Source: an uncultured virus (IMG/VR IMGVR_UViG_3300025133_000075) (Duplodnaviria; Heunggongvirae; Uroviricota; Caudoviricetes). From it: a stretch of DNA of 20,000 nt. The stretch is from the IMG/VR virus record IMGVR_UViG_3300025133_000075; one strand, 5' to 3'. Position 1 is the first letter of the stretch; each line of letters begins with the position of its first letter. The notes beneath the pieces were generated by a model that worked only from the letters and a program-made list of their open reading frames with translations, ran no database searches and was not told the DNA's origin. The translations under genes and the position numbers were made by a program. This document shows, in pieces, positions 602 through 17,979 of the stretch.

Positions 602-2251
602 CTATACAGGGGCTGTAGTAGTTCGAGCACAAACTGCCCCACGTTCCAGCTGACCGCCATAGCGAGCCATTGCAACGATAAGCATCTCATTTGCCCGGAT
701 GAGCGTATCACCTTCAGTGGAGGTCCGCATGGTCAGACCACGTCGTCTGTACATGCGGTATCGAGCCAGGATCACATAAGCGATCTGAGCATTCGTCAGA
801 CTCTCATTGATCTTGTAAGGCCGCTGCATCCAACTGTAGTCGTCATAGGTCATTCCACCCAAACGACGAGCGTCAGAGGCTCCCACGGGGATAGCACGAG
901 CACGCTGGTAGCTGGTCTCTGTACCAATCCACACAGCACTACTCTTGACAGAAGCACGATGCTCTGCCTTGGCAACACCGAATCGAGTAGATTCGTAGTT
1001 ACCGAGAGAAGTAGCTCCACCCCAAGCAACAGAAGTTGCTCCGGTCTTGTTCATCACACCTTCTGGCTGAGTCGTGCCGTTACCGACAGCGATCACATCA
1101 TCCAGATCTTCCATCAGACGTTCACCATACTGAGAGGTGATGTGCTGGCCGAAATCGATCGGTGTATCAGACAAGAAGTCCAAACCAATGCGAATGGCAC
1201 CTTCCCAGCGGAAGATGGTGGTATCGAACGCTGACACATACGATGCTGTGTTGAACAGACTGATGGCAGAGTCATCGACACCACCCCAGCTCGCTGACAC
1301 AGTACCAGTGGCCACACCTTCAACACGTCGACCACGATCAAGCGGCTGGGTGCTGACGAGCGGGTACAGCTCACCATGGAGCAGAGGAGTCTGAATCACC
1401 TGATCGTCGAATACGATCGGTGCGGCTTCCAGTCCACCAGAAGTAGCGTCGTCGATCAGAGCCTTCTGCTCTGAAGGAGACAACTTGCGATCTTTGATGT
1501 CGGCTGAGTCGCCACCATCAGAAGCACCGCCCCACTTCTCGTTTTCCATGGCATAACAAAGGAGTTCTTTGCTGTGCTGTGTCAGCTGGTCGAATGCCAG
1601 TCGACGACTTTTCATTCGAGATCGATTGATCTCAAACTGAGCGAACGCACCGGCAACAGCCTTGTCGCGATCGGAAGAGTCATCAAGAGCCCGACCCGTG
1701 GCTTCGTCACGCACTCGACGACCGGCCTGAGGATGAGCAAAACCTTTTTCCGTCATTTCAGGATAGTGAAGAGCTGACTTCGTGGAGTCGTAAGAGTCGG
1801 CAGCTTCCTTGACTCGAACAGTGAAACTCTTTTCGCCGTCTTCGTCTTCGGAAATGTGAGCACCAACAGAAACGATCATCTTCTGCAGTCGAGAGGGTTT
1901 CATTGATTTATCTCCAGAAGGCTCAGTGGATTTGCCTTCTTCCACATCGGCTTCTTCTGTGCTGTCGTCAGCATCAGTTTCATCGTCAGCTTCTTCGTCT
2001 TCTTCAGAGGCATCTTCTTCAGATGCGTTCTTCAGATCAACGACAGCGTCTTTCAGATCGACCAGAAGGTCTTTGAAAGCAGAAGCTTCTTCGTCTTCGT
2101 CTTCTTCGGACAGGCTCTTCAGCTTGTCTGGAGTCAGGTCACCAGCCACCAACGCTTTCGCGGCGGCTGCCTTGAACTCGTCATCAGTGGCGTCGACATC
2201 GACATCACATTCTTTGACCAGCCAAGACTTAAAATTGCGTGTGAGATTCAT
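602..2251 (-). CDS. Major capsid protein, HK97 fold, with long acidic N-terminal scaffold/delta-like region
   Basis: 549 aa directly after the prohead protease. The C-terminal half has HK97-like signatures (KALIDDATSGGLEAAPIVF, FLSDTPIDFGQHI, VIAVGNGTTQPEGV, ARYGG). Confidence 0.9.
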   Translation of the reverse strand: MNLTRNFKSWLVKECDVDVDATDDEFKAAAAKALVAGDLTPDKLKSLSEEDEDEEASAFKDLLVDLKDAVVDLKNASEEDASEEDEEADDETDADDSTEEADVEEGKSTEPSGDKSMKPSRLQKMIVSVGAHISEDEDGEKSFTVRVKEAADSYDSTKSALHYPEMTEKGFAHPQAGRRVRDEATGRALDDSSDRDKAVAGAFAQFEINRSRMKSRRLAFDQLTQHSKELLCYAMENEKWGGASDGGDSADIKDRKLSPSEQKALIDDATSGGLEAAPIVFDDQVIQTPLLHGELYPLVSTQPLDRGRRVEGVATGTVSASWGGVDDSAISLFNTASYVSAFDTTIFRWEGAIRIGLDFLSDTPIDFGQHITSQYGERLMEDLDDVIAVGNGTTQPEGVMNKTGATSVAWGGATSLGNYESTRFGVAKAEHRASVKSSAVWIGTETSYQRARAIPVGASDARRLGGMTYDDYSWMQRPYKINESLTNAQIAYVILARYRMYRRRGLTMRTSTEGDTLIRANEMLIVAMARYGGQLERGAVCARTTTAPV

Positions 2252-2317: not shown

Positions 2318-3817
2318 CTACTCGATGATAGAAGTGACTGCTTTTTTGTAAAGAGCAGTTGTCTTCTTCATGTCTCGAATGTTCTTCATTGCCTCCAGCA
2401 CTGTCAGCATCTGATCCAGATCAGCAGCATCGGCTTTCGTCAAGAAAGTCTCAGCAGCCTTTGCAATAAGCTCTGGCTCAGAAATTTCAACTTCAGTACC
2501 TTTGCCATCATCTTCATAACCGGCAGACTTCACTACTGATTGAACAGTCTTGAAGCACTTGTCACACAAAGCTTTGCCAGATCGAGTGCTGACGTGATCT
2601 TTGTGCAACTCCTCCATGTCCTTGGTCACATCCAGCAGCTTGTTGTAATTTGATTTGCTGAGGACTCGACCGGCTTTCTCTCCATCAAAGCTCTTGTCTT
2701 CTTTTTTGTCATCCTTGCCATCGTCGTTGCCCTGTGGCTTTTCTTTTGGCATCTTTTCACCACACTTGGTGCAGACCCCATCAACCACTTTGCCTTTACA
2801 CTTCGGACAAATCATTTCCGATTCTTTGGCATCGTCTTCTTCTCCGTGTCCGTCTCCGACGCCTTTGTCGGCATCGTCATCGGTTTTTTCTGATGCACAG
2901 GGACAGGTTCCTGGAGTTTTTCCAAGAGGGCATTTTGTTGAGCTTGACTTGGTTTCATCTTCTGTCTCTTTCACATTGAGTGTGATGTTGAGGTCCAGCC
3001 CACCCGCTGAGACAGTAGACTTCCGATCGGCTCTCAACTTCTTACCAAAGGACTTCATCATCGAACTCGACAACTTGTCGGATTCGATGAGATCCAGGTA
3101 GACTTCAACAACTTCTGAATCAGGATTGGCAGGAACACTGACCCCTGATTCTTCCATGATTTCAAATGACTTGATATCGAAACCACCAGGCTTGGTAGTC
3201 TTGCCTTCGTCCTGTTTGATCGCTTCGAATTCAAGAGCTTTGAATCCATGCGAAAATCGAAGCATGTCATTGTCAACCATCACTGCCGCATCATGCGACA
3301 ACTCATTGAGGTCGATGATCGCTGTGTACATGTCGAGGTATTTGCTGGTGTGCTCAGCAACACCTAACGCTTTACCGATCGGCAGTGTGTGAACGTGCTG
3401 CCAAAGCAGAAGCATTTTGGGGTCAGGTCGAGCCCCCTGTGTTCTGAGGATATCTCCATCTCTGTCTTTTCGAGGAGTCGTCAATCGATTCCGAAACACC
3501 ATCAAAGTGTTCTTCGGCAACTCGATCGAAGTGTCTCCCATTGAATTATGGAGCGTCCGATTCTTGCATTCCCCATACTTGTCCTGAACTTCCATTTCAG
3601 GATTGGAATAAGTGAGGACACCGCTGGCTCGCTTCACGGCATCATGGAACGATACATTCTTCACCGAAGCGTATCGATTGCACAAATCCGAGCCTACGCA
3701 CTGTTGCAGGTTCTTTGCGTAAGCATCGCCTGTAGAAATGCCGTAATTGAATTCCGTTTTCTTTTCTTGACGAGTTCGGATCGATCCGAGCAGCTCGTCA
3801 TTTGAAGTCTGCGGCAT
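2318..3817 (-). CDS. HK97-family prohead (maturation) protease with Cys-rich/acidic C-terminal extension
   Basis: Motifs KDRDGD, LLWQH (catalytic His), PIGK, FSHGF (catalytic Ser), EESGVSVPANP and KAGRVLS; lies immediately upstream of the capsid gene. Confidence 0.9.
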   Translation of the reverse strand: MPQTSNDELLGSIRTRQEKKTEFNYGISTGDAYAKNLQQCVGSDLCNRYASVKNVSFHDAVKRASGVLTYSNPEMEVQDKYGECKNRTLHNSMGDTSIELPKNTLMVFRNRLTTPRKDRDGDILRTQGARPDPKMLLLWQHVHTLPIGKALGVAEHTSKYLDMYTAIIDLNELSHDAAVMVDNDMLRFSHGFKALEFEAIKQDEGKTTKPGGFDIKSFEIMEESGVSVPANPDSEVVEVYLDLIESDKLSSSMMKSFGKKLRADRKSTVSAGGLDLNITLNVKETEDETKSSSTKCPLGKTPGTCPCASEKTDDDADKGVGDGHGEEDDAKESEMICPKCKGKVVDGVCTKCGEKMPKEKPQGNDDGKDDKKEDKSFDGEKAGRVLSKSNYNKLLDVTKDMEELHKDHVSTRSGKALCDKCFKTVQSVVKSAGYEDDGKGTEVEISEPELIAKAAETFLTKADAADLDQMLTVLEAMKNIRDMKKTTALYKKAVTSIIE

Positions 3818-4104: not shown

Positions 4105-4481
4105 CAGTCAGCTTCCCGAATTACTTGCTTCCGGAACTTATCAGAAACTCGCCCCTCCAGAACCGCCAACAGCTGCTTCACATAGTTGGCATCTTCATGC
4201 CCACCATCTTCAATCGAATCCAACCAGAGCTGGATATCATGAATGTGTGGAAGCGTCTGTGCGGCGTCAGAAGGTACCTTCAGAGCCCCTTTGGCCTTGC
4301 CCTTGACTCTCTGAGCCACTTCTCTAATGAGTCGATACAGCGGCTGGATCTTATCCTGACCGCCATTGAAACAAAGACAATTGAGAGCGTCTTGGTTCAC
4401 ATGCACAGTCCGAGGAGATCCCAACTCTTGTGAAGCTGGATCCTCGCTCGGTGCTGTGACTGGTCTCTTTCTTGTCGCCAT
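4104..4481 (-). CDS. Hypothetical protein
   Basis: 125-aa ORF coupled to the next gene by a TGATG overlap. Confidence 0.65.
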   Translation of the reverse strand: MATRKRPVTAPSEDPASQELGSPRTVHVNQDALNCLCFNGGQDKIQPLYRLIREVAQRVKGKAKGALKVPSDAAQTLPHIHDIQLWLDSIEDGGHEDANYVKQLLAVLEGRVSDKFRKQVIREAD

Positions 4482-4530
4482 AATTCCGATTTCTGTCTAA
4501 AGGACCAAGAGCTTACGAGCTGCTGGACGA

Positions 4531-4905
4531 CTATGAAGAACTGCTTGAGCTGGACTGTGAACTTGAGGAGCTAGAGCTGCTTGAGCTTGAGCTTGACAGG
4601 TCTTCCATCGACAGAACTCGGAAGAGTCCGTCGTCAGCTACAGGTCCGTTGTACTGCAATTCCCCTGTGTGGAAATTCAAAACCTTGAGAGGTGGCGTCT
4701 CACCAGAACTCAGCACATCAGCAAGAGTAGCCTGCCAAATCGTAGAGCTTGGGAGATTGACTGACACGTTTTCGTTCGCACCAGCATCTGCATTGTGCTG
4801 AGCAGAAGGAGCTGAATCATCGCCAGCTCGATGAAACCGCGTAATGACCAGTGTTCGCGATGCCAATCCGGAAACAGGCCCCAGGTAAAAATTGACTCGT
4901 TTCAT
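4531..4905 (-). CDS. Hypothetical beta-rich protein with C-terminal poly-serine tail
   Basis: 124 aa ending S13-Q-S7, encoded by mixed TCN/AGY codons. Confidence 0.7.
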   Translation of the reverse strand: MKRVNFYLGPVSGLASRTLVITRFHRAGDDSAPSAQHNADAGANENVSVNLPSSTIWQATLADVLSSGETPPLKVLNFHTGELQYNGPVADDGLFRVLSMEDLSSSSSSSSSSSSSQSSSSSSS

Positions 4906-4925
4906 GACTCACACTTTCTTAACAG

Positions 4926-4973
4926 AAAAAGCCTCTGACGGCTGAAATGGTTACAGATCAGGAGTCGAGGCTT
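4926..4973 (-). terminator. Extended hairpin plus U-tract (terminator or leader attenuator)
   Basis: Minus strand AAGCCTC-GAC..CTGA-loop-TCAG..GTC-A-GAGGCTT-TTT in the 4906-5043 intergenic gap. Confidence 0.45.
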
Positions 4974-5043
4974 GTGAGCTTAGACGATTCAAATTGTGAC
5001 TATCGAAGAACGGTATTGGGTGCTACCAAAACAGACAAGAGCA

Positions 5044-5274
5044 TTACCTGTTTTTATTTGGATTTTTCGGTTTTTCAATCTCATCCAAATAGCAGCGAAC
5101 ATGAAGCACTCGACGATTGTTTCCGTGTACTTCGAGCCTCACAGTAAAATCCCTACCAGCTGTCATGTTCTCGCAAAACCGATCTTGGAATTTCCTGAGT
5201 CCTGTTAGCATCTGCCCTAAAGACTCATCATCATTTTCCAACACCTTCTGCAACGTGTTTATTTGTTGGTTCAT
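5044..5274 (-). CDS. Hypothetical protein (~76 aa)
   Basis: Track ORF 5044..5322. The likelier start is ATG 5274 (MNQQINTL), which forms an ATGA overlap with the upstream stop. Confidence 0.6.
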   Translation of the reverse strand: MNQQINTLQKVLENDDESLGQMLTGLRKFQDRFCENMTAGRDFTVRLEVHGNNRRVLHVRCYLDEIEKPKNPNKNR

Positions 5275-5711
5275 GAAACTCTCCAAGGCACTCGGAGAAC
5301 CATCACATCTTCCCCAGCCCACCGTTGAATTCCATCCAGGATCGTTCGGATCTCTGTCGGATCGTCTGTTTTCAATGCCACTTCCAGCAGATCAGTGGAG
5401 CACAAAGGGACTCTGGAACAACTCAATTTCACTTCGTTAGGATGAGCTGACAGCACAAGAAAATCAATACCAGCTACCAGCATCGGCGGCTTCGTTCTGC
5501 TTCTTTTGATGATCTCCACTTCAGCACAATTGACAATCAAAGTATTGACGTGCTCTCTGGTGTAATCATCAACACCTCTCAACACTTTCTTTCTCTGATC
5601 TGCTTTCAAATCGACTGACACCCTGGCCACCATTCGGTCCCCTGGATAATACTTTGTCTGTGTCGATTCTATGTCTGAGAGTAACGGCACGGCTCTGTTC
5701 ATGACTGCCAT
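5271..5711 (-). CDS. Hypothetical protein
   Basis: 146-aa ORF overlapping both neighbours in a tightly packed operon. Confidence 0.65.
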   Translation of the reverse strand: MAVMNRAVPLLSDIESTQTKYYPGDRMVARVSVDLKADQRKKVLRGVDDYTREHVNTLIVNCAEVEIIKRSRTKPPMLVAGIDFLVLSAHPNEVKLSCSRVPLCSTDLLEVALKTDDPTEIRTILDGIQRWAGEDVMVLRVPWRVS

Positions 5712-6007
5712 TCTATTTTAGGTTTCTTTTGATTCCGAAGCTCCGCATTGATTTCAAGCGTCCATTCTGCGAACTCTTTCAATGCCTGTTCTTCTTCCTG
5801 CGAGCTTCGAAGATCCCCTGTTCGATGACGCACCACCATGGTTCGCCACAAGATCATCGCACTGTCCAACTCTACTGGTATTGGAATCTCTGTGTGCCGA
5901 ACCCTTTCATGTAGACCGGCGACATCCAGAAAACGATCCTGAACTGCCTCACTCAATCCAATGGTATCTTGACTGGATGGGTAAAGGACATTCTTATGCA
6001 GTTCCAT
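5699..6007 (-). CDS. Hypothetical protein (~102 aa)
   Basis: Track ORF 5699..6064. The likelier start is ATG 6007 (MELHKNV) with GGAG upstream. Confidence 0.6.
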   Translation of the reverse strand: MELHKNVLYPSSQDTIGLSEAVQDRFLDVAGLHERVRHTEIPIPVELDSAMILWRTMVVRHRTGDLRSSQEEEQALKEFAEWTLEINAELRNQKKPKIEWQS

Positions 6008-6524
6008 CTGTTTCTTCTCCCTGTTCTTCATTGTGGACCACAACATCAGGAAGCATAGCCCCAACCGTAGCTGGTGACAAACCTATAAACGCATTTGTAT
6101 AGGTCTCAAACACAGCCTCCATCATCCATTCCCATTCTTCATCTTTAACATCGTCCTCTCCCGCAATTTCAGCGACCTTTGCGACAGCATCAAACAGCAT
6201 CAAACAGCAGTGCTCCATGATCTTGGTTGAATCTGTTTCTGATGATCCCAGGAACTTGGCACAGTAGTCATCAATGACGCCCGGCTGATTCCACCTATAA
6301 GCAGCTCGATAATCTTTATGCTCTCCGAGGAGAATTTTAGCCAATCGCTTGCAGAGCTTTTTATAATCATCTGGAGTGTCTATAAACTGCGATACGTAAT
6401 ATCGAAGCAGATTCTTTACTGTGTGGACATCCCCCAGGTACACAGGGTCTTTCGACTCCTTTAATGCACTGCGAAAAGGTTTATCTAAACCAACGTCTCT
6501 GAATGTGCTCTCTTCTGTCATCAT
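5994..6524 (-). CDS. Hypothetical acidic helical protein; candidate immunity partner of the upstream kinase/ART
   Basis: 176 aa, starting 7 nt after the stop of the 807-aa effector with GGAG-poor but tight spacing. Function is inferred from position only. Confidence 0.6.
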   Translation of the reverse strand: MMTEESTFRDVGLDKPFRSALKESKDPVYLGDVHTVKNLLRYYVSQFIDTPDDYKKLCKRLAKILLGEHKDYRAAYRWNQPGVIDDYCAKFLGSSETDSTKIMEHCCLMLFDAVAKVAEIAGEDDVKDEEWEWMMEAVFETYTNAFIGLSPATVGAMLPDVVVHNEEQGEETDGTA

Positions 6525-6531
6525 TTAATTT

Positions 6532-8955
6532 CTATGGAGGGCAGCATTGCCCTTCAAGTGTGGGTAGTGCCGTAGCAAATATGATTGTATCTATCGTACC
6601 AGGGGCATCGAACTTGCCCATGCCTTTGTCGCTCTTCTTTTGTACCCTTGTCACCAGAAGCCGTTGATTGGATGGCAGCAAAACTTCTTTCTCACCACCG
6701 TTCGCAGAATGCTTATCTACCGGCAAGCCCTTGACGCCTTCCCCTGCCGTGATCTTCCAAAGATTATTGCCCGACATCTTTCCGTACGGATCTGAAGTAG
6801 TAGACATCACACCTTTATCTGACACCACCAACCCCGGCTTCATGCCACTCATGTCTCCTGAGTGCTTGCGAGTTACCGTCACACCTGGATCGATTGGGAT
6901 GCTGTATTTGTGGACTCCAATGGCAACACTATGTGCTCGTTTGCTAGTATCCGCCGATCCGGTTTCTTCTTGGCGAAGCACACGATTCATAGGACCGTAC
7001 CCAGATCCCGTATATGATTTGATTGCAGTCTTATGCCCAACTGCCTTCTTGAAAGCTTTAGATCCAGCCTCATGTAAAGCATCAGCGTTGCTCCAATCCA
7101 AAATGTTAATTGGCGTATGAGCCCCCTTGCCTTCTTCTTCTGCGATCGATCCCAACACATCCCACTTGCCAACCTTACTAAGTCCTTTCTGTCCTTTTGC
7201 TGATTGTATTGAATTCACCAAATTCGCTGATGTCTCTGACATCGGCTTTGGTGGAGCTGGTGGATTCAATTGACTCTCTACGTTATTGATCAAGGCATTG
7301 ATGTGATTTTTTACCTTTGGTGATTTGACTTCTCCAGTAGCAATCATACTCTGGAGCTGGGAGATATTACCTTTCAGAGCAAATATACCAGCCTTTTGTA
7401 ATTGCCCTTTGTTGATAGCAGCATGAGTTGCGTTCTGATCAGAATGGAATTCTGGCTGTTCCGGAAACTTGTTTGGATCAATTTTGATCGGTTTGGGCTC
7501 GGCTTTTGGCTTGACGTTAGAAGGCTTCACTGTTGGAGATTGGTTGCTCTTCATCGCTGCCTTTGCAGCTTCTTTGTAAGCATGCACAGCTTGACCTGCC
7601 TTCGTCGTCAAGCCGCCTGTTGCTACCGTTTGGAGCTTATCCAAAGAACCTTCATTGATGTACTGCTTGATCACTTTCAACTTCATTTTTGCTGTCGTTA
7701 GCCCCACTTCAGTACCTTGAAAAACAGGCTCTGGTGGCATCGCTGTGTGAGTCTTCGGAGCTACTGGTTTCTCATCTTCCACACCCGCTTTCTTGATGAT
7801 CGAGTCTCTTCGTGATTTCAAGAGGGCTTTGATAGAGGCCCTGTGAGCGTCGTCAGAGCTTCCGAACTGATCCACGAGCTTATCGATGTCTTTGTCTTTG
7901 ACGTTCTTTAGCTTCGAAGCTGTGTGCTGTATCTCCTTATGAGACATCTCACCAAACACTTTGGCCATCGTCTCGTTTTTGCTTGGATCCCGCAACGACT
8001 CGAACTCTGAAGCCACCGCATCAAAGTTCTTTTTGCCAGCACCACCCCCACCTTTCCAGTCGAGTCCCCCTCCAACATCGATAGCGACCATCCCAGTCTT
8101 GGACTTGTCCTTCCAGTGGATATTGTCCATTGGATTTTCAGATCCAGCACCAACTGCATCCCTGTTATTCAGCCAAGCATGGACAGCAAAGTCCTTTCCT
8201 GCGATCGATTGAGCATGTACCGAATTCCAGTTTGGCTTCGCTGAATCATCCAACCACTCGCCCGCGACACCCACCTTTCCATCGATATCAACCAGATGCA
8301 TCTTCTTGGTGCCGCCTCCGGCCAACTCATAGAGCTTGGCTGTGAGCACTTCGTTCCTGGCTCGCTCTGGATCATCCGGAATCTTCACATAATACTTTTT
8401 GCCACCCATCATATAGGTGCCACCTTTTTCCGTTCCGAGCTTGCCTCCGATCTTCTTCCAGTTCTGACCATCTGCGATCTCTGGTGGATCTGAAGCGATC
8501 GCTCCGTCTGGTAGTCCGAACAGCCCCTTGGCTTTCATGTCAAGAAGATTCTGCTGGACTTTGGCAATCTTCTTGTTGATCCCCTTCGGATTCTTGTTCT
8601 TGCTCATGTTCTTTTCGAAAGCGTCCCAATCGCCTTCTTCTGCGAGCTTCTCCAGCTTGTCAACTTTCTTGAGCCAGTTATTCAACCAAGCTTTGGTCTT
8701 GGGAGTGCCTGCTGTGTGCTTGCTGAAATCGACTCCAGAGAGCCCTCCCACAGATCCCGGCACAATGTGCCCATCAGCATCGTACTGAGCCGCTGAGTAC
8801 CCACCACCTTTGCCTGAGCCCTTACCAGATGAATGGGACATCTGATCGTGATGTCCTGGCATGTGCTTCTCTTCAGAAAGCTCTGCGTCTGGCTTTCCCT
8901 GAGCGGCCAATCGATCGTATTCTGCTTGTGTGAAATCTTCTTCTAAAAAAATCAC
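6532..8955 (-). CDS. Two-enzyme effector: HipA/PI3K-like kinase plus C-terminal VIP2/Alt-like (R-S-E) ADP-ribosyltransferase
   Basis: GTG start with GGAGG RBS. Kinase motifs: LGTEKGG, YYVK, NEVL, WLNNRDAVG..DNI, AIDVG. ART motifs: IKSYTGSGYGPMNRVLR, VTRK, GVMSTT, GEKEVLLP. Variant tag KHMPGHHDQMSH at aa 30. Confidence 0.8.
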   Translation of the reverse strand: MIFLEEDFTQAEYDRLAAQGKPDAELSEEKHMPGHHDQMSHSSGKGSGKGGGYSAAQYDADGHIVPGSVGGLSGVDFSKHTAGTPKTKAWLNNWLKKVDKLEKLAEEGDWDAFEKNMSKNKNPKGINKKIAKVQQNLLDMKAKGLFGLPDGAIASDPPEIADGQNWKKIGGKLGTEKGGTYMMGGKKYYVKIPDDPERARNEVLTAKLYELAGGGTKKMHLVDIDGKVGVAGEWLDDSAKPNWNSVHAQSIAGKDFAVHAWLNNRDAVGAGSENPMDNIHWKDKSKTGMVAIDVGGGLDWKGGGGAGKKNFDAVASEFESLRDPSKNETMAKVFGEMSHKEIQHTASKLKNVKDKDIDKLVDQFGSSDDAHRASIKALLKSRRDSIIKKAGVEDEKPVAPKTHTAMPPEPVFQGTEVGLTTAKMKLKVIKQYINEGSLDKLQTVATGGLTTKAGQAVHAYKEAAKAAMKSNQSPTVKPSNVKPKAEPKPIKIDPNKFPEQPEFHSDQNATHAAINKGQLQKAGIFALKGNISQLQSMIATGEVKSPKVKNHINALINNVESQLNPPAPPKPMSETSANLVNSIQSAKGQKGLSKVGKWDVLGSIAEEEGKGAHTPINILDWSNADALHEAGSKAFKKAVGHKTAIKSYTGSGYGPMNRVLRQEETGSADTSKRAHSVAIGVHKYSIPIDPGVTVTRKHSGDMSGMKPGLVVSDKGVMSTTSDPYGKMSGNNLWKITAGEGVKGLPVDKHSANGGEKEVLLPSNQRLLVTRVQKKSDKGMGKFDAPGTIDTIIFATALPTLEGQCCPP
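8830..8868 (-). repeat. Effector tag copy 8 (variant KHMPGHHDQMSHS)
   Basis: aa 30 of the 807-aa ORF, followed by a Gly-rich linker. Confidence 0.7.
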
Positions 8956-11900
8956 AGCTCGCCTCCACTCACAATTGAAAACAAGCCCATCACATCATCT
9001 CCGTATTTCTTTCCTGATCGAGTACCGGCATACACTTCAGCCACAAATTCCAAAGCATTCTTTGTCGCATACCTTGAAACTTTGGTTTCTATCACAGCCA
9101 ATTGCTCTTTGCTGAATTTGTGATTTTTTACACTAGAATACATGCTGCCTTTTTTTGATGAATGCCACTTGTGTCCCAATTCATGCAGCACTGGATTCGA
9201 TTGAGCACTCCACTTGCTATCTACAGAAGCTGCTGCTGCTTTACGAGTACCCGCTCCGTTCATTTTCCGAGCAACATACAATTGATCATTACTTTGGCGA
9301 TACATCCCCAAAGCTCTCATCTTGTTTACAGACACAGTCTTGGGCAATGGATCCCCATTTTCAATCGCCACTGTGTACGCATCTTCCACATCCTTTCTGA
9401 TCAACTTTTGTGTAATATGAGCAGCCGCTGCCACCGCTTGCTTTCTCGCTGCTCCCCTTCCATGGGTAGACTGATCGTGATCTGCGTGCTTCAATATGAG
9501 CCGACCTTCATCATCGCTTTGCTCTCTTAGTTCGTGCAACCATCCTTGATGGATGCCATCATCTACTTTAACCGGAAGTAATGTCTTCTCCGGCTTGGTT
9601 GCTTTTAACCACTCTTCTACGTTATCCCTAGAAGCTGCCCTGGAACGTCCGTCAAGTGTCATTCTAGAGCCAACCAACACTTTCGCTTTCTGGCGACGAC
9701 CCAACAACACCACTTCAGCCTCTCCCACTTGTCCGATCCCTGTGATCGCAGTAGAAAACACATCTTTAGCAGGCACCTTAGTTTTCACCATGAGCGAATT
9801 CTCTGGACTGCTCACATGCTTAGCTGTGAACTCACCAGCGACTACTGAAGACAACGAGTGGCTCGTGATCGCTCTGCTTTCAATGACAGCATCTACCCGA
9901 CCAACCCGTGACCCATAGGGCTTTCCTTCCGCATACGCCCCCACAGTATCTGCTGCCGCTACCAAATCTTTAACAAACTTTGGAGGTGGTGTGTCTGGAA
10001 AATGATCCCCACGTCCATCCCCAGAAGATCCAGATCCCTTATAACTCAAACCCCTAAACGCAGAAACTTCTGTGACTCCGGCAGCAGCTAATTTCTCTTG
10101 CGTGTTCTCATAAATCGCCTTCGTGAGCTTGTCGATCGTGGCATGGTGCTCTTCCGTCAACCCCAAAGAATCGCCCTTGGAAGAACGACCTGAATCTGGA
10201 GCAAGCGTCCTCTCTACTGATTGATTCATAGCTCGTGGCAGTGCTGTACTGTTGTCTTTCATCCACTGGGCACTGGCTTGGTTCGCTAGATGATGGACTC
10301 CAGTAGAACCCACTGATTCTGGAGTCATATCATGAGGCTCTACACCCAACTTCGACAATACTGAATCTGCTTCTTCGTCAGTAACCCCAGCCTTTCGCAT
10401 GCGATCGGTGACTTCATTCACTACTGTATCAAACTGCTTCTTGAATCCATCTAGAGACTCTGGCTCTTTCACTCCAAGCCTAGACTCTGACAACCCACCT
10501 CCAGATTGCTGAGCCAATTCTGACTCCCATACAGCATCGATTGAAGCACCTCCTCCTCCAGCTCCCCGACCTCTTCCATGGGTCAACTGATCATGTGATC
10601 CGTGCTTCAGTTGTGTGTCGGTTACTTTGGTGAAAGAAGTAAGATCTACGATCTCGGAAGTGCCCCGCTTATTCACAGTCACAATCGCATCGTAACCATC
10701 AGCGACTATTGCCTTAGACAAGCTCTTCCCTGTCTTGTTGTACTTAGCTTGCAGCCGCTTCTTCCAACTACCTTCGCCATAGATTCGATCGCCTGTTGAG
10801 AGCTCCATGACAATCGGTGATTTGAATTTAACAGAACCCTTTTCCCACCCAGGCATCGGATCTCGTTTAGGATCGTAATCGTGCGACATATAACGACCAG
10901 CAGGCTCTATGCTCTGCTGAAAAGAGTCCCCACCTACCGATTGAGAAGAAACTGTGTTGCGAACAAAATTAACTTTGACTGGCTTGCCAGTTTCAAACTC
11001 TACCCCGTATTCTGAGACAGCAGTCAGGGCAAGCGGGCCTCCCGAGGAACTGCCTCCCCTTCCGTGGGTCAACTGATCATGTGATCCGTGCTTCACTCTG
11101 AGCACAGCGTCTTTTTTCAGCATACGCTTGGCATAGTCACTGATCAGATCATCCGCAGAATCATCCTGCAGACCGTACATCATGATCACAGTGCATTGGC
11201 AGTTGATCCTCTCACCAGCACTCAACCTGGAATCACTTGGCCAGCGGCACTTCACTCCACCAAGAACCCATTCTCCATTTGAGTCCTCTGGCACTCCATC
11301 CAGATTTGCATGAGTGTCCCGTGTTGTGCTGCCCAACACCGACAACCAACCCCGACGCATCGGCAACTGATCACCCACTTCATCTTTGAGGTGCTGCATC
11401 GCTTCCGATCGAGCTCCATTCAATGCGTGCCCAATTTCAGTTCTTGCGATCCGTCGACCTCTCATCTTGGCATATCGACTGTCACCAACGAATTGGCTCA
11501 TCATATTGATCGCCATCTGCTCGATGCTCAAACCTTCGACTGCTCCCACTCGTAGAAATTTCGTGATATCTCCGAGAGTGGTCATGTTGACCTCTGTCCA
11601 ATAGTCCTGTGAAAAGGTCTCTGTCAGGTACTCTTGGATTGACTTCTTCATCCACTCTGGGTACTCAGAAACGAATGCCATCGAGTGCTCACCAAACGGT
11701 GTGGTGAAGCTGAGCTCTTCGAGTGGGCTATCGTCAAACGTCGCTATGTACTCTGAGGCTGTTGAGGCTTTTTCAACAGATTTGGATTCTACCGCATTCC
11801 AAGCTGAACTGATCTCTATTGCCGGAATCGTTTTTCTGCCTTCTTTTTCATAAGCTAACTGGTTGTGTGATCCGTGCTTTTCTCGCTGTCGATGTTGTCC

Positions 11901-12932
11901 CAGATCGAGTCCAGGATGTCTTCGTCCTTTTTCTCCATCTCTGGTGGATTTTCCACTTTCTTCCCCGAATCTTTGCTTGACATAACTGTCTAATACCTTT
12001 CTTGATTGTGAGCCTGGGCGAGTGTCAAAAGACCCGAAGAAAGTGCCACCGTTCTCTTTCCACGCAGTTCTCCCTTCTTTGCTTTTCATCAAATCAGAAA
12101 TACGAACTGCCTCGGGAAATTCAGACTTCAGCTTCTTGCTATCAGTTGTGTGAGCTGATCCAATCCTCCCATCATAACCTAACCGAGCCCAAGTATAGTA
12201 GCCATTGAAAGAGGGAGTCTGCTTTGCTCCCATCGCTTCAGTTTCAATAGACTCAATACCTAGTTCTGCAGCTTTCTTGACTTGGCGATGGAGCAACTTC
12301 GTGCCGATGCCCTTGCCCCTGTTGGCGACACGATGCACATAAAATGTTGAATTCATCATCGACTTTTCGCCAGTGTCAGAATCGATCGTCACGATTCTGG
12401 TGGCGTCGTGGGTGTCGTCTTTACCAGTGAGCTCGATGATAGCTTCATGGTCTCCGTCAGAATTCTTAGAATACGAAATCTGGATATCGTCACCAGGAGC
12501 ACCGCCAGCAAGAGCAGCAAGATCCTGGGAGCTGCCCCCCAATCCTTTCAGAAACTGCTTGCCTCCTTTGCCATGCTCAGTCACGTTAAGAGCTCCACCA
12601 GCTCCGCTCCCTCTCCCCCGGCCATGACTCAGCTGGTTGTGGCTGCCGTGCTTCTCTTCTTTCTCGATCCCCCGACCCTTGACGTAAGCCCCTACCTCTT
12701 CGAACATCGCTTTGGCATAGGCTTTAGCCAGAGGAGGGGCGATCGTATCAATGAGCTGTCGGTGCCAATCCGACGATTCAAAAACGACAGATCCGTCGAG
12801 TGATTTTGTGCCATGAGATTTTCCACCGACGACAGCAACAGCATCGTCTTCTTCATAGACGAATTCATGACGACCTATGTTGACTTCACTGAGCCAAGCC
12901 GCTTCTTCTGGAGTCTCGTCCAAAGTAATCAT
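8952..12932 (-). CDS. MuF/SPP1 gp7-like head morphogenesis polyvalent protein: GNAT + MuF + ART-like + R-S-E ART + zincin metallopeptidase
   Basis: MuF: RIARTE...WLSVLGSTTRDTH..LDG...WPSD...ERINCQC. GNAT: NRGKGIGT, NGYYTWARLGYDG. ART-like: GRYMS..KSPI..GYDAIV..SEIV. ART: FRG/TSHS/EAEVV. Zincin: HELGH..SRYA..N..EFVAE. Confidence 0.85.
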   Translation of the reverse strand: MITLDETPEEAAWLSEVNIGRHEFVYEEDDAVAVVGGKSHGTKSLDGSVVFESSDWHRQLIDTIAPPLAKAYAKAMFEEVGAYVKGRGIEKEEKHGSHNQLSHGRGRGSGAGGALNVTEHGKGGKQFLKGLGGSSQDLAALAGGAPGDDIQISYSKNSDGDHEAIIELTGKDDTHDATRIVTIDSDTGEKSMMNSTFYVHRVANRGKGIGTKLLHRQVKKAAELGIESIETEAMGAKQTPSFNGYYTWARLGYDGRIGSAHTTDSKKLKSEFPEAVRISDLMKSKEGRTAWKENGGTFFGSFDTRPGSQSRKVLDSYVKQRFGEESGKSTRDGEKGRRHPGLDLGQHRQREKHGSHNQLAYEKEGRKTIPAIEISSAWNAVESKSVEKASTASEYIATFDDSPLEELSFTTPFGEHSMAFVSEYPEWMKKSIQEYLTETFSQDYWTEVNMTTLGDITKFLRVGAVEGLSIEQMAINMMSQFVGDSRYAKMRGRRIARTEIGHALNGARSEAMQHLKDEVGDQLPMRRGWLSVLGSTTRDTHANLDGVPEDSNGEWVLGGVKCRWPSDSRLSAGERINCQCTVIMMYGLQDDSADDLISDYAKRMLKKDAVLRVKHGSHDQLTHGRGGSSSGGPLALTAVSEYGVEFETGKPVKVNFVRNTVSSQSVGGDSFQQSIEPAGRYMSHDYDPKRDPMPGWEKGSVKFKSPIVMELSTGDRIYGEGSWKKRLQAKYNKTGKSLSKAIVADGYDAIVTVNKRGTSEIVDLTSFTKVTDTQLKHGSHDQLTHGRGRGAGGGGASIDAVWESELAQQSGGGLSESRLGVKEPESLDGFKKQFDTVVNEVTDRMRKAGVTDEEADSVLSKLGVEPHDMTPESVGSTGVHHLANQASAQWMKDNSTALPRAMNQSVERTLAPDSGRSSKGDSLGLTEEHHATIDKLTKAIYENTQEKLAAAGVTEVSAFRGLSYKGSGSSGDGRGDHFPDTPPPKFVKDLVAAADTVGAYAEGKPYGSRVGRVDAVIESRAITSHSLSSVVAGEFTAKHVSSPENSLMVKTKVPAKDVFSTAITGIGQVGEAEVVLLGRRQKAKVLVGSRMTLDGRSRAASRDNVEEWLKATKPEKTLLPVKVDDGIHQGWLHELREQSDDEGRLILKHADHDQSTHGRGAARKQAVAAAAHITQKLIRKDVEDAYTVAIENGDPLPKTVSVNKMRALGMYRQSNDQLYVARKMNGAGTRKAAAASVDSKWSAQSNPVLHELGHKWHSSKKGSMYSSVKNHKFSKEQLAVIETKVSRYATKNALEFVAEVYAGTRSGKKYGDDVMGLFSIVSGGEL
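9459..9491 (-). repeat. Effector tag copy 7 (KHADHDQSTHG)
   Basis: aa 1148 of the 1326-aa ORF, before the zincin domain. Confidence 0.9.
10575..10607 (-). repeat. Effector tag copy 6 (KHGSHDQLTHG)
   Basis: aa 776; DNA identical to the copy at 13958-13990. Confidence 0.95.
11061..11093 (-). repeat. Effector tag copy 5 (KHGSHDQLTHG)
   Basis: aa 614; one nucleotide differs from the copies at 10575 and 13958. Confidence 0.95.
11856..11879 (-). repeat. Effector tag copy 4, truncated (KHGSHNQL)
   Basis: aa 352; lacks the final xHGRG. Confidence 0.85.
12621..12653 (-). repeat. Effector tag copy 3 (KHGSHNQLSHG)
   Basis: aa 94 of the 1326-aa ORF, before the GNAT domain. Confidence 0.9.
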
Positions 12933-14275
12933 TCATCGCTCCAGAAGGAAGAAGAGAATTCATGCTGCCGCTGCACTACGTACCCACCATCAAAACCCAC
13001 GTCCAGATCATATTCCCGATCATGCTTAAAAGTGCGAGCCTTCATCTTTCTACTTGAATTGTGCATCACTACGACTTCAGCTTCCACAAGTGTGCCAATC
13101 CCTGATCTTCCTACTGAAAAGATGTCTTTAGCTTTCACCACTCCCCCAATTATGTCGCCATGCGTTTCATCGCCTGTTCCGCCAGAGAAGATTTCTGCTT
13201 GAGACACTGAAGTAGTGTATGACGATAATCTATTCTGAGACACAGCGTCAACTGTTGACTTTCCATATCCCTTTTTGGCCGACTGCTCTCTGCGAGGAAT
13301 GCCCCGATAGACGACCAGCGACTCCACCCCGTTCTCTTTTAGATGTGCTTGCGTGTTCTCATAAATCCCCTCTGTTGCAGCTTCGATCACTTTCCTGTTT
13401 GATCCCAACTCCATCCACTTGTTAGCTCTCTCAGCATTGATTGGACGAGCCCCTTCAATTCCATACTTCTTCTCAGCAACCACCTGTAACGACATCCCCA
13501 TGATCGAATTGGAATCTGAATTCCAACTTTCAATCACAGTATCTATTGCATCAGTTGGAGTCTTCAGCCCCATCTTCCTCCCCCTACTGTTCGTGAACTC
13601 TTCTGCATCGCTATCTGACAACTTGTCCCCTACCCGGTTCGCTATATCTATGGCTGTTTCTCTCTGCATCGATTTAGACGCAACCCAACCTTGGTTCTTG
13701 TTTGCTGGTTTGCTCGCAAAGACCCACCTTCCATGCGAAGTCTCAAACTCTGGGAAATCAGCAAGCTTCCCAACATCAGGAGCTCCTGCCGCAGCAGCTG
13801 AAGCAAATACGCCTTCTTTCGTCTTCTCACCAGCATCTGTCTTCATCCATGCGTTCATCGAATCTGCCGATTCATTCAAGTAGGCAGCATTTGATGTTTT
13901 TTCTACCTCTGCTGCCGATTTACTAAAAGCAGCCACAGAACCAGCAGATCTTCCCCGTCCATGGGTCAACTGATCATGTGATCCGTGCTTCTCAGCGAAA
14001 ATAGAGACAGTCCCACGCTTCTCCGTTGCGTCTGAGAGAGCCCGCAGATCATCCGCGACAGATGTGATCTGTTTGTTGAAGAACGGAGTCAGAGCTGCCA
14101 CTATGGAGTTCTCAGCAGCTCTCCGTTGTTTTTCATTCCTTCGACGGGCAGCAGAAAAAGACTTCTGCAGATACTGGCTCTGCTTCCGCCTGCGATCCTG
14201 GATCTTCTTGGAAATCCCATTGATCGCATTCGTGGCTTTTAGAATGCTGAGCTTCTTTTCAACGGTCAGAGTCAT
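12929..14275 (-). CDS. MuF-type N-terminal helical leader fused to an R-S-E ADP-ribosyltransferase-like domain
   Basis: 448 aa; tag KHGSHDQLTHGRG at aa 96; ART motifs VVYRG, LSSYTTS, VEAEVVV; ATGA overlap with the 1326-aa gene. Confidence 0.75.
   Translation of the reverse strand: MTLTVEKKLSILKATNAINGISKKIQDRRRKQSQYLQKSFSAARRRNEKQRRAAENSIVAALTPFFNKQITSVADDLRALSDATEKRGTVSIFAEKHGSHDQLTHGRGRSAGSVAAFSKSAAEVEKTSNAAYLNESADSMNAWMKTDAGEKTKEGVFASAAAAGAPDVGKLADFPEFETSHGRWVFASKPANKNQGWVASKSMQRETAIDIANRVGDKLSDSDAEEFTNSRGRKMGLKTPTDAIDTVIESWNSDSNSIMGMSLQVVAEKKYGIEGARPINAERANKWMELGSNRKVIEAATEGIYENTQAHLKENGVESLVVYRGIPRREQSAKKGYGKSTVDAVSQNRLSSYTTSVSQAEIFSGGTGDETHGDIIGGVVKAKDIFSVGRSGIGTLVEAEVVVMHNSSRKMKARTFKHDREYDLDVGFDGGYVVQRQHEFSSSFWSDE
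13958..13990 (-). repeat. Effector tag copy 2 (KHGSHDQLTHG)
   Basis: aa 96 of the 448-aa ORF, before the ART module. Confidence 0.95.
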
Positions 14276-14414: not shown

Positions 14415-16064
14415 CTACGCTCCCACTGTGACCCTCAGCAATTTAACAGCTTCCGCAAGCTGCCCTTCTACGTCTTCATCTGAAAGCTCTTCTGGGGCCG
14501 CTGGTGCCTCAAGTTCATTCTGAATAGGATTCCCCTCTTCATCGACTTGGGGCTCTCCTGGAACACCTGGGGGAGCTTCTTCGCCTTCTGGTGGACCTTC
14601 CCCAGCTACAGCATCGGCCAGATCACTTGGTAGTCCCATCCCCTGTAACAAAGCAACTCCCTGCTCAGGTTGCAGAGCTCCAGCCGACACCTTTTCAGCG
14701 ATCGTTACCGCTTGGGCAGCTATCGATTGGCCGATGTGACTCTGATTGGAATCTTCATCTGGAGGCAATCCCATATATTCACGGTACTCATTCTGAGAAA
14801 CATCTCCAGCTGATCGAGCTGCTTTCCATTTGGCTGATTCTTCAACCGGATTGATCGCCACCTTGGGCTCGTACCAAATCTTGTACCCATCTTCAGCATT
14901 CTCGAACAGCCCCGGCACGAAATCGGTGGTGATGGTCGACAGCAGATCGAGAAACGTATTCACCTTATCGTAGAATTTCTCTTTGATGATCCGAGCCTGA
15001 GCTTCTGATCCAGGAATCTCTTCGCCCAGCACGAACGGATGTACTCCGAACGCTGACAAGATTCTCCCTCTAACCGTTTTTTCGCTCTTCTCCCATCCCA
15101 TCTCATTCTGAGAGGCACTAACTCGATCGATGCTTTCGATCAGCCCATCCACGATCGCTGGATTTCCATAGTTGGATGTACCAGCCTGGACCTTCTTGAT
15201 CGCTGCGTAGATCTGACGCCGCTGCTTTCCCGTCAACCTGGGTCTGATTGCTGTGCCTGCCAATTCCGGATGTGGATTCTTCCCGATCGTCACAACCACT
15301 GAAGGGAAAATACCATTCTCGAAAAATGCCATCTGAGAGGTCTGGATATGATCATCGATCTTAATGGCAGCTGATTGAGATGATGCTGGAGCGATCGCCG
15401 CCAATGGATTGGATGGATCCGGAAGGTACGCAAATCGAACTTGGCTCTGATCCAACAGCTCGTCATCAGAAGCTTCCGATTGTGAATTATTCGGATCCGC
15501 GATCTTGAAGTGACTGAATGGCCCATCTTTGTGAACAGGCTTCACCCAAGTAGTGGGCAGAGAATAAACCTCTGGCATCCCATCCTCAGATTCACCGGCA
15601 ACCAAATAGCCGTATCCCGTCAAACAGAGATTGGCAATGAAACTGTAGGTGTACTGCCATCGATACTGGATTGGGTTCGGCTTCTCCAGCAAATCAAGAA
15701 TGCCGTGATCTGTGACGATCTCCATTTCATCTTTAGCTGCTTTGGTTCGCAGCGATGTGATCTTTCTGTTGCCTGGGGCTTTCTTGCCTTTCTTCAACTG
15801 CTTTCTCTGACCAAGATTCACAGGCTGTCCAGCCGCACACTCAGCGATCGCATTCACAGCAGCATGAACCCAACCTCGAAACAGAGAATACCTCCGTCGA
15901 TTGGTTGCTCGCTCACCAAACCCAGCGAACTGAGAATTCGCTGCCGCTGGTGTGACGTTGTCGACCCCAAAACCTTTAGAAGCCAAGACCGCAGCATCGG
16001 ACTTGGCAACAGAAATGATGGACCGGCTTCGGCTGAGACCTTTGGTCAGAGTTGATTCTCTCAT
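14415..16064 (-). CDS. Phage portal protein, HK97 family
   Basis: WVHAAVNAIA, LLEKPNP, LCLTGYGY, FFENGIFPS, ILSAFGVHP and NEYREYMGLPP motifs; acidic Pro-rich tail. Confidence 0.9.
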   Translation of the reverse strand: MRESTLTKGLSRSRSIISVAKSDAAVLASKGFGVDNVTPAAANSQFAGFGERATNRRRYSLFRGWVHAAVNAIAECAAGQPVNLGQRKQLKKGKKAPGNRKITSLRTKAAKDEMEIVTDHGILDLLEKPNPIQYRWQYTYSFIANLCLTGYGYLVAGESEDGMPEVYSLPTTWVKPVHKDGPFSHFKIADPNNSQSEASDDELLDQSQVRFAYLPDPSNPLAAIAPASSQSAAIKIDDHIQTSQMAFFENGIFPSVVVTIGKNPHPELAGTAIRPRLTGKQRRQIYAAIKKVQAGTSNYGNPAIVDGLIESIDRVSASQNEMGWEKSEKTVRGRILSAFGVHPFVLGEEIPGSEAQARIIKEKFYDKVNTFLDLLSTITTDFVPGLFENAEDGYKIWYEPKVAINPVEESAKWKAARSAGDVSQNEYREYMGLPPDEDSNQSHIGQSIAAQAVTIAEKVSAGALQPEQGVALLQGMGLPSDLADAVAGEGPPEGEEAPPGVPGEPQVDEEGNPIQNELEAPAAPEELSDEDVEGQLAEAVKLLRVTVGA

Positions 16065-16786: not shown

Positions 16787-16948
16787 CTACTCTGCTGGGA
16801 TATCAAGCACCCAACCCTTTCGCTTTGCTTCGGCATGGTCTTTTTTGATCCCCCGTTTGAATGACTTTTCTTCCGCATTCTTTGCAGTGTCCGGCTTGTC
16901 AAGAATGACTTCTTGAGCCAGCTTTGCTTGTCTGTCTGTGAATATCAT
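16787..16948 (-). CDS. Small protein (53 aa) coupled to the zeta-like kinase; candidate antitoxin
   Basis: Below the track cutoff. GAGGTG RBS and ATGA overlap with the zeta stop; MIFTDRQAKLAQEVILDKPDTAKNAEEKSFKRGIKKDHAEAKRKGWVLDIPAE. Confidence 0.65.
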   Translation of the reverse strand: MIFTDRQAKLAQEVILDKPDTAKNAEEKSFKRGIKKDHAEAKRKGWVLDIPAE

Positions 16949-17979
16949 CTAATCACCTCTTTCCCTTTCTTCGTGAACCGCTTGAACTTCACTGAATCGT
17001 GAATCTGGAGCTTCGTCCCTTCCGCACTCGCCACTTTGACCGGCTTCCCATTCGTGTCCCAAATGGTGATCTTATCGTACAGACCGGCTTTGATCGCTTT
17101 GGGAACCACCGCAGAAACTGCTTTGTGGGTATTCTTCAGCATCGTCTCTGGAGGCAACCGGCCCGTCTTGGCTGCTCTCTTTCGATTCCGCTTGATCGCC
17201 ACTTTTGTGGGAACCGAGACATAATGAGCGACAACTGTGCCGCCCCCGTCACGAATCTTCTTCACCTTTTTCCCGAGAGAATCCAGACCGCTATCCCCAG
17301 TGCCATCCAGCAGCGAATTGAAAGACCCCTTAGTGGCTTTGGAATGAATCTGCTTGGATAGGTAGCTGGATTCTTCATGAGCGAAAGCAGCAGCAGTCGA
17401 GTCTTTGCCCACAACCCCTTTTCGGTATTCTGGCAGCAATGATTTGATATGATCGCTGTCGATCGTGACTGTGTTTTTCGGGACTGATACCTGTCCTGAC
17501 TTTATTATACCAGATTTTCCCGAAGCTGGACCCCCTCCCATCAGATAACCTGTCGGCTTACTGACTGGAGTCTTCCCCTCGAAATGGGCATCAATGATCT
17601 CTTTGTGCAAAGCTTGTCGAGCTTTTGAGTAGCCGCCAGTCCGAGAGGAGTGCTGCCCTTCGCTGTCCTTCCCTTTCGGATTGACCGGCTTGTAAGCTTT
17701 CGGATCTTCAGATGATTTGAATTTCCATTCTGGAAGCCTGGCTTTCTTCGTCTTCGCTTTCCAACTCGCAGAATCAACCGATTCCCCACCTTCAGCTTTT
17801 GGTGGTTCTTTACCCGCACCTCCAGCAGCTCCAGCAGCTCCTGATCGACTTGGTCCACCTCTTCCATGGGTGGACTGATCATGTGATCCGTGCTTGCTCG
17901 CCCAAAGAACGTCAGCTGTCACATCGATCACTTTTGCCAGTGCTTTTATTCTCTTTTTCTTGGAAAGCATTGCACACAC
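16945..17979 (-). CDS. Zeta-toxin-like P-loop kinase with N-terminal KHGSHDQSTHG tag
   Basis: Walker A GGGPASGKS, IDSDHIK, HEES, LLDGTG and R..KTGR..P, typical of the zeta toxin/PezT family; tag at aa 29. Confidence 0.8.
   Translation of the reverse strand: MCAMLSKKKRIKALAKVIDVTADVLWASKHGSHDQSTHGRGGPSRSGAAGAAGGAGKEPPKAEGGESVDSASWKAKTKKARLPEWKFKSSEDPKAYKPVNPKGKDSEGQHSSRTGGYSKARQALHKEIIDAHFEGKTPVSKPTGYLMGGGPASGKSGIIKSGQVSVPKNTVTIDSDHIKSLLPEYRKGVVGKDSTAAAFAHEESSYLSKQIHSKATKGSFNSLLDGTGDSGLDSLGKKVKKIRDGGGTVVAHYVSVPTKVAIKRNRKRAAKTGRLPPETMLKNTHKAVSAVVPKAIKAGLYDKITIWDTNGKPVKVASAEGTKLQIHDSVKFKRFTKKGKEVIR
17863..17895 (-). repeat. Effector tag copy 1 (KHGSHDQSTHG)
   Basis: aa 29 of the zeta-like kinase. 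Confidence 0.95.

Follow-up and report, generated by a model that had tools for sequence, protein, structure and literature searches.

The window, a 20,000-nucleotide (nt) stretch of DNA from an uncultured tailed phage (IMG/VR record IMGVR_UViG_3300025133_000075), belongs to a 75-kb contig. Its minus strand carries an open reading frame (ORF) for a protein of 1326 amino acids (aa), located in a head gene cluster with an HK97-type portal, an S78 protease, a capsid protein and a head-tail adaptor. In this protein a MuF core is combined with four predicted enzyme modules, each headed by a short conserved peptide, referred to as the tag. A Lys residue precedes the tag, and the chain is probably cut after this Lys by the head protease. 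The gene, its MuF parts and its tags are located as follows (a slash marks the boundary after the Lys).

8952..12932, minus strand: MuF polyprotein, 1326 aa, with its own ribosome-binding site; both ends overlap the neighbouring genes
12663..12788, minus strand: MuF N-terminal block 2, aa 49-90 (profile of 8 short MuFs, E 0.0028; alignment)
12618..12653, minus strand: tag 1, K94/HGSHNQLSHGR (motif search)
11850..11879, minus strand: half-tag K352/HGSHNQ, with no cargo behind it (motif search)
11121..11768, minus strand: MuF core, aa 389-604, beginning K388/ASTASE (PHROG 2468, PF04233, edge analysis)
11058..11093, minus strand: tag 3, K614/HGSHDQLTHGR (motif search)
10572..10607, minus strand: tag 4, K776/HGSHDQLTHGR (motif search)
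9459..9491, minus strand: tag 5, K1148/HADHDQSTHGR (motif search)

The ORF and its MuF core, as given in a first-pass annotation of the window, were both recovered, and all the motifs quoted there are in place: NRGKGIG (aa 204), RIARTE (494), HANLDG (541), NCQC (577), GRYMS (679), GYDAIV (746), SEIV (759) and HELGH (1250, or nt 9185). The ribosome-binding site, GGAG, lies 7 nt 5' of the ATG. A frame fused with the upstream 448-aa gene was ruled out by an in-frame stop just 5' of the ATG and by this ribosome-binding site; the two ORFs are therefore read as coupled genes, and locus L100 has both of them. The 1326-aa ORF recurs at the same place in one other IMG/VR assembly and partially in two more, with 100% identity of the MuF core. 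Since the core is shared and one assembly holds the whole ORF, misassembly across short repeats is unlikely. The NCBIfam search of the polyprotein gave no match, and Rfam gave none in the window at E<=0.1.

The MuF core matched PHROG 2468 (E 3e-27), and its relatives at 40-60% identity exceed the PF04233 cut-off. In short MuF proteins of this phage family, of which 8 were used, two helical blocks are followed by a Lys and then by the core. With a profile built from them, block 1 was located on the 448-aa gene (aa 24-84, E 8.9e-9). From these matches, cargo follows each of the three parts, block 1, block 2 and the core, so that the alignments place insertions at two fixed sites inside MuF in addition to the C-terminus. 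Internal inserts were detected in 29 of the 42 relatives with a match to the MuF N-region, and MuF genes are split near these insertion sites in L121, L131 and L175 as well. Cargo had been claimed on both sides of the core; this holds for the C-terminal part, but the supposedly N-terminal acetyltransferase-type (GNAT) module is inserted between MuF block 2 and the core, with block 1 on the upstream gene.

A MuF-core search among proteins of 729-2321 aa yielded 49 long MuF proteins, this one included. More than 200 aa flank the core on both sides in 25 of the 49. Four of the relatives (P0002, P0018, P0043 and P0048) have a precomputed match to PF14890, which we take to be an intein family, and the MuF core match is broken into two in P0002 and P0048. 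The layout had been regarded as exceptional, which is not supported: in 22 of the 49 proteins, again including this one, tagged cargo flanks the core on either side, and polyvalent phage proteins combining ADP-ribosyltransferase (ART), GNAT and zincin domains, as well as MuF-effector fusions, are already in print (PMC5512222, PMC9503650; here and below, statements on the literature refer to the accessible sections of the cited papers).

The tags and the residue before them

The tag of this phage, HDQ, has the pattern K-H-x(2-4)-H-[DN]-Q-x-x-H. Five copies are present in the 1326-aa protein, starting at Lys 94, 352, 614, 776 and 1148 in agreement with the positions claimed before, and the one at 352 is truncated after HNQ. 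Single copies occur in the neighbouring 448-aa, 807-aa and 344-aa genes. The eight copies of the 75-kb contig are thus all within the head cluster, and since the tag also forms a 5-copy DNA repeat family, it is not a chance motif. Two points had been missed in the first-pass annotation: the Lys before each tag, which is a likely head-protease site, and the same tag on these three neighbouring genes. The half-tag at K352 is likely a relic, left as a deletion scar; in the relative P0017, the same GNAT tail leads directly into the MuF core.

For comparison between loci, IMG/VR was scanned with a Lys-free tag pattern, giving 119 stretches, and 111 loci, with overlap among them, were analysed. Lys occupies position -1 in 286 of 289 distinct HDQ-tag contexts. 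The three others are all from phage G001, in which 10 of 10 tags are preceded by [LV]-x-E, and the protease-capsid fusion of G001 has LSE/A exactly at the start of the Pfam capsid domain. The residue thus switches jointly from K to E at the tags and at the capsid junction, so that it is likely the P1 residue of the head protease and not a part of the tag. This joint switch, seen in one genome and with junctions deduced from sequence, is the strongest evidence for such a role. Within the tagged head cluster of G001 there is also a ferritin-like gene (L201:16016-16663; Pfam E 7.9e-18), which would be noteworthy if the tags bind metal.

In 68 distinct capsid proteins of this family, taken from 80 loci, the residue just before the HK97 core (-1) is Lys in 60, and in the remaining 8 the Lys lies one position earlier (-2); it is kept at the junction even though the upstream sequence is of two unrelated types. 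The edge of the MuF core, in the 37 relatives aligning there, follows Lys in 33, coincides with the start Met in 3 and is different in one. The S78 proteases HK97 gp4 and T5 pb11 cleave after Lys (PMC13517437), and by analogy the S78 proteases of these phages presumably have the same specificity. Pfam comparison of 44 HDQ-tagged proteins gave ARTs, zeta kinases, SprT-like zincins, PI3/4-kinase-like domains and XkdF-type proteases, about half of the proteins being without a match. The tags also sit on portal fusions, protease fusions and small basic proteins.

Further kinds of tag were found by internal-repeat analysis of the 49 long MuF proteins. Besides HDQ, these are K/CGGxGGxxGPCP, K/NCGTGAGGFxPGNxC, K/xFCPTGxGGGxDxxC, K/[FY]NPxH[DG]xxGRF, K/GGPGSGNFGHxGRPG and K/GDxPGHEFxGNQW. 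All seven kinds bear His or a Cys pair. The seven patterns match 96 times in the 49 proteins and on average 0.07 times in shuffled sequences (200 shuffles), the patterns being partly derived from these same proteins. At least one tag is carried by 40 of the 49, and 6 mix two kinds; the contig under study has eight HDQ tags and one CGG tag. Lys is present within 5 residues of 94 of the 96 tags (background 32%), and each kind has for the most part its own constant offset. Over all 49 rows of the MuF tree, 18 changes of tag kind are counted, against a minimum of 7 and a shuffled mean of 32.8. Tag kind thus clusters beyond chance on the tree, yet switches often, and a single origin on this tree is rejected for both HDQ (approximately unbiased test, p 2e-7) and NPxH (p 7e-4). 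A description of the tags was not found in the literature searched, which included few subscription journals; the supplementary lists of PMC5512222 may show such architectures.

Enzyme modules and neighbouring genes

The four enzyme modules of the 1326-aa protein are as follows.

11943..12596, minus strand: GNAT module, aa 113-330, with G206-x-G208-x-G210 (Pfam, PHROG, module alignment)
10617..11036, minus strand: ART1, an ART-like domain, aa 633-772, with R658/Y681/E760 (relatives, AlphaFold2 model, fold searches, conservation)
9633..10325, minus strand: ART2, an ART of R-S-E type, with R960/S1024/E1071-x-E1073 (motif, paralogue, ESM Atlas)
8955..9440, minus strand: zincin module, H1250-E-x-x-H1254 ... 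E1295 (motif, relatives)

The prediction of four separable modules delimited by tags was borne out, in that three have standalone relatives or relatives on other carriers and the GNAT shifts between MuF positions. The modules are predicted to be a GNAT, an ART-like fold (R-Y-E), an R-S-E ART and a zincin. These are the kinds that had been claimed, and the support differs among them: a match below cut-off for GNAT, a weak but consistent fold match for ART1, the motif and the link to a DRAT-like neighbour for ART2, and the motif for zincin. Sequence searches against solved structures gave nothing credible for the whole 1326-aa protein, the ART1 profile or the zincin profile.

For GNAT, PHROG 3810 was matched at E 0.011, and 13 homologous modules were detected in 9 relatives on either side of MuF. 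The G-x-G-x-[GA] loop is retained in the 14 aligned modules, and all 14 are located behind a tag, of three different kinds. Cultured phages gave no match in a GNAT search. The zincin residues H1250, E1251, H1254 and E1295 are invariant in three of three aligned sequences, and its relatives are a 177-aa standalone protein and portal fusions; in relatives, the same zincin sits behind two tag kinds. The zincin itself had no Pfam match, and its relative P0075 matches ATLF at E 0.049.

ART1 is present in 143 of the best 149 new matches to aa 632-1326, many of which are standalone proteins of 130-190 aa. An AlphaFold2 model from 61 sequences reached a mean predicted local distance difference test score (pLDDT) of 95.5, and in the structure comparison 25 of the 34 listed matches, including 15 of the top 16, belong to the ART superfamily as judged by their titles. 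Foldseek, which had been proposed for each segment, was run on ART1; it gave no PDB match at E<=0.001, and viral models labelled ART-PolyVal from E 0.02. In the ESM Atlas, ART1 is at 0.91 to a cluster of which 20% is PF18760. Y681 and E760 are conserved in 61 of 61 sequences, and position 658 is mostly R (R46, H10, K4). ART1 itself had no match in Pfam, and PF18760 (ART-PolyVal) was matched by one of the 61 family members, at E 0.0065. Assignment of ART1 to PF18760 was thus rejected, given the lack of a profile match and a triad of R-Y-E instead of H-Y-D. With moderate confidence, ART1 is an ART-like domain of a large family that has no Pfam model of its own. A homologue from a cultured phage, gene 167 of Gordonia phage Skog (L199:4812-5420; 37% identity), adjoins two glycosylase-annotated genes and tail genes. 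The family, large and unmatched in Pfam, thus has a confident model and a cultured representative that offers a practical handle on it.

The R-S-E kind claimed for ART2, defined by R in strand 1, S-x-S and E-x-E, agrees with R960, S1024-H-S1026 and E1071/E1073, but the range given for it, 10570-9640, is too wide, the catalytic part being at about 10325-9633. ART2 and the cargo of the 448-aa gene are paralogues (pairwise blastp E 9e-9), and the latter matches Pfam DRAT at E 2.9e-4. ART2 has sequence links to DRAT-like and PF03496 proteins, and its ESM Atlas neighbours include ART clusters at 0.89-0.90. ART2 itself had no Pfam match, and a single-sequence model of aa 615-1148 was unusable (pLDDT 35.9).

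The other genes of the head cluster that bear on the chain are located as follows.

16945..17979, minus strand: 344-aa zeta-toxin-family kinase with tag at 17857-17895 (PF06414, E 5.6e-23)
14415..16064, minus strand: HK97-type portal protein (profile matches)
12929..14275, minus strand: 448-aa gene with MuF block 1 (14024-14206), tag (13955-13990) and DRAT-like R-S-E ART (profile E 8.9e-9, Pfam)
6532..8955, minus strand: 807-aa gene with tag (8827-8868), kinase-like domain and Alt/VIP2-type ART (PF03496, E 1.6e-10)
5994..6524, minus strand: 176-aa orphan (co-occurrence with the 807-aa module)
2318..3817, minus strand: HK97-type (S78) prohead protease (PHROG 80, E 3.9e-8; TIGR01543, E 4.6e-4; PF04586, E 0.0023)
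602..2251, minus strand: HK97-type major capsid protein, with predicted maturation junction K263/A264 at 1460-1465 (profiles, alignment)

With its block 1, the 448-aa gene is the first piece of the split MuF chain. In relatives, sequence homologous to the 807-aa gene is part of the MuF protein itself, and the 807-aa gene is therefore likely a third piece. Its middle region (window 7771-8478, minus strand), which we take to be kinase-like by the motifs NEVL, HAWLNNRD and IDVG, had no kinase match in Pfam, and is strongly conserved in 11 long MuF relatives. The 176-aa orphan is present in exactly the 4 of 80 loci with the 807-aa module, directly behind it; without a meaningful match in Pfam or PHROG, it is a candidate immunity protein of that module. 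Between MuF and the protease (window 3817-6064, minus strand), there are ORFs of 121, 146, 92, 124 and 95 aa, kept in 21-27 of the 80 related loci and without a useful family match. One of these five could be a tag reader or a head factor.

Outside the window, a Lys-rich histone-like ORF of 380 aa (G000:C1:50461-51603, minus strand) lies between tail genes and is headed by a second tag kind, Lys followed by CGGRGGKPGPCP. Small basic tagged ORFs are also located 3' of the capsid gene in the relatives L117, L124, L137, L138, L191 and L194. Both the 380-aa ORF and the small ORFs are candidate internal DNA-binding proteins. Comparison of the capsid protein with GTDB gave four matches, two to planctomycete bins (74% and 51%), one to a Georgfuchsia bin (77%) and a weak one, which are weak hints to the host.

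Proposed path of the chain and alternative readings

In the proposed path, MuF would carry the chain into the procapsid via the portal, as in SPP1, where it is the portal that directs gp7 there (PMC6316719). The S78 prohead protease, the likely cutter, would cleave after each tag-preceding Lys while removing the scaffold. The freed modules, being folded, would remain in the head and be ejected with the DNA, and the injected enzymes would modify host proteins or disarm host defences. Packaging via the portal, ejection and the enzyme activities are carried over from known families. The evidence leans, with some reserve, towards the whole path, from packaging via MuF through cutting after Lys by the head protease to injection of the enzymes, and more strongly towards the cutting step taken by itself.

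How the tag itself might act is a guess, held tentatively: it would stay as the new N-terminus and serve as a self-associating, probably metal-bridged handle. By self-association, separately encoded tagged proteins would ride with a tagged MuF, portal or protease fusion, and the freed domains would be held in the head. Such like-with-like association is favoured over a lock-and-key reader because the tag serves unrelated head machines, swaps freely, is dominated by one kind per genome and has His or paired Cys in every kind. Possible, and no less speculative, is a portable cargo code of tailed phages, composed of the P1 residue of the head protease, one of at least seven unrelated His/Cys-Gly peptides, and any enzyme. 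The peptide would then depend neither on the protease family nor on the head proteins, would form the new N-terminus and self-associate via metal, and copying of the tag would load any set of enzymes.

Several observations weigh against these interpretations. None of the seven tags is present in 15 of 28 related head clusters with MuF or a tag, and a tag occurs in 5 of 143 ART1-bearing relatives; neither MuF nor ART1 therefore needs tags. The Glu control for tag and capsid together comes from the single genome G001, in which a search for the protease family PF03420 gave no match (0 of 1). The capsid junctions were deduced from alignment, and the tags of P0055, P0075, P0152 and P0107 follow Arg, Glu or longer spacers, or have no clear site. 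Some of the family matches are below cut-off: PF04233 for the MuF core, just under (E 3.6e-6, 28.1 bits vs 29.6), PF00583 for GNAT (E 0.0033, 18.1 bits vs 20.7), and both the Pfam and the NCBIfam match of the S78 protease, for which three libraries agree. The best fold match of ART1 is weak (Z 4.2, root-mean-square deviation 4.7, 116 aligned). The phage has no close cultured relative, the best MuF matches being at about 30% identity, and a short-tag tblastn of cultured phages, a search of low sensitivity, gave no credible match (one chance hit and one blank).

The alternatives differ in the role given to the tag and to the Lys. With cutting by the head protease as proposed above, it is rather unlikely that the tag acts as a lock-and-key signal for loading, recognised by one of the head proteins (portal, capsid, scaffold or protease) in the manner of the capsid-targeting sequence of T4. 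Such a signal would account for the tags near the N-terminus of standalone head-cluster proteins, and for the single tag kind in 11 of 13 tagged loci and in 34 of 40 tagged MuF proteins. The HDQ tag, however, occurs with unrelated head machines, HK97/S78 in this phage, an XkdF-type protease, and the gpT-like capsid of G001; the 18 changes of tag kind and the rejection of one origin for HDQ and NPxH also argue against it, and the T4 signal is a removed propeptide (PMC5694885), whereas the tag lies after the cut. An uncut chain, in which the Lys would be part of a docking motif and the polyprotein would act intact, has a parallel in the N4 virion RNA polymerase, packaged uncut (PMC5512222). It is nevertheless quite improbable, as the same tag takes Glu where the capsid junction has Glu, the upstream Lys is the sole feature common to seven unrelated tags, and the MuF core has either a Lys before it or a Met at its start.

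If the zincin of the chain did the processing, within the head or once injected, and the tag marked its sites, this would agree with the intact HExxH...E motif and with the role proposed for polyvalent proteins (PMC5512222). Against this, the residue before the tag tracks the capsid junction (K or E), a zincin homologue is not detectable in the other 48 long MuF proteins, 39 of them tagged, and the zincin itself is tagged, movable cargo on portals, all of which make this reading very improbable. With respect to codon usage, 48 of 201 identical-residue codon pairs (24%) differ between the tag copies of the window, suggesting recent copying; this and the relic half-tag are what might be expected if the tag were a mere DNA homology anchor for cassette swapping, without a role as peptide. 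Across loci, however, synonymous tag sites are near saturation (44% within a locus vs 50% pooled), while H, Q, H and G of the tag are 96-100% invariant, partly forced by the search pattern for matched copies. Selection therefore acts on the tag peptide, and a mere anchor is scarcely credible; recombination at tags may also help shuffling, as a side effect.

If cutting at tags by the head protease is true as a grammar, it identifies both the cut sites of polyvalent head proteins and the enzyme responsible, two points that the first description of these proteins did not settle. A rule would then be at hand for delimiting, within unannotated phage polyproteins, the injected enzymes of anti-defence or host takeover, and a short handle might serve to load proteins into HK97-type capsids. 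Because of the K-to-E switch, the cutting step lends itself to a direct test, and the interchangeability of the seven tags restricts what their reader could be.

Comparison with known systems

By its composition, the 1326-aa protein is a phage-type polyvalent protein. It combines MuF, GNAT, two ART-type domains and zincin, within the range of 2-15 disparate domains, and its setting is that of a virion gene near the portal, with portal, S78 protease, HK97 capsid and head-tail adaptor. As in the polyvalent proteins of Iyer et al. (2017, PMC5512222), unrelated enzymes and a virion structural domain are present in one chain among head genes, and packaging, processing and injection are predicted. 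In the accessible sections of that description, processing is ascribed mainly to zincin and junction tags are not described, whereas in this protein every module is preceded by a conserved tag, itself behind a Lys matching the capsid junction. The ART of the polyvalent proteins is of H-Y-D type, in contrast to R-Y-E in ART1.

The MuF polymorphic toxins (Jamet et al. 2017, PMC5576092; Zhang et al. 2012, PMC3482391) likewise consist of a MuF head protein, encoded in the packaging module, whose C-terminal extension bears ART and metallopeptidase domains. Unlike these (PMC5576092), the protein has three C-terminal modules and inserts inside MuF, and its MuF is split over two genes. The immunity ORF of less than 150 aa found directly downstream of MuF toxins (PMC5576092) is absent, the next gene being of 807 aa and followed by the 176-aa candidate. 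The protein would work like a MuF toxin, but departs from the pattern of a single toxin with a small immunity ORF.

The internal proteins and Alt of T4 and the ejection proteins of SPN3US and phiKZ (PMC5694885) are also head-packaged effectors, including ART, for which protease processing has its predicted counterpart here. In T4, the prohead protease gp21 uses the same motif on effectors and on the capsid protein, and cuts after Glu (PMC5694885). The T4 signal is an N-terminal propeptide; classification of the tag as a T4-type capsid-targeting sequence was rejected, since the tag follows the predicted site, is mostly internal and recurs within polyproteins, and goes with an HK97-type (S78) protease. 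With HK97 gp4 and T5 pb11 (PMC13517437) and SPP1 gp7 (PMC6316719), the phage shares the HK97-type portal-protease-capsid module, the Lys junction and a MuF beside the portal. The HK97 and T5 proteases remove the scaffold, and in the accessible sections of that paper (PMC13517437) release of tagged enzymes from MuF is not described. Compared with all these systems, what appears new from the sequences is the K/E switch before one and the same tag, the seven tags within one MuF clade, and the insertion of cargo into MuF with gene splits at those sites.

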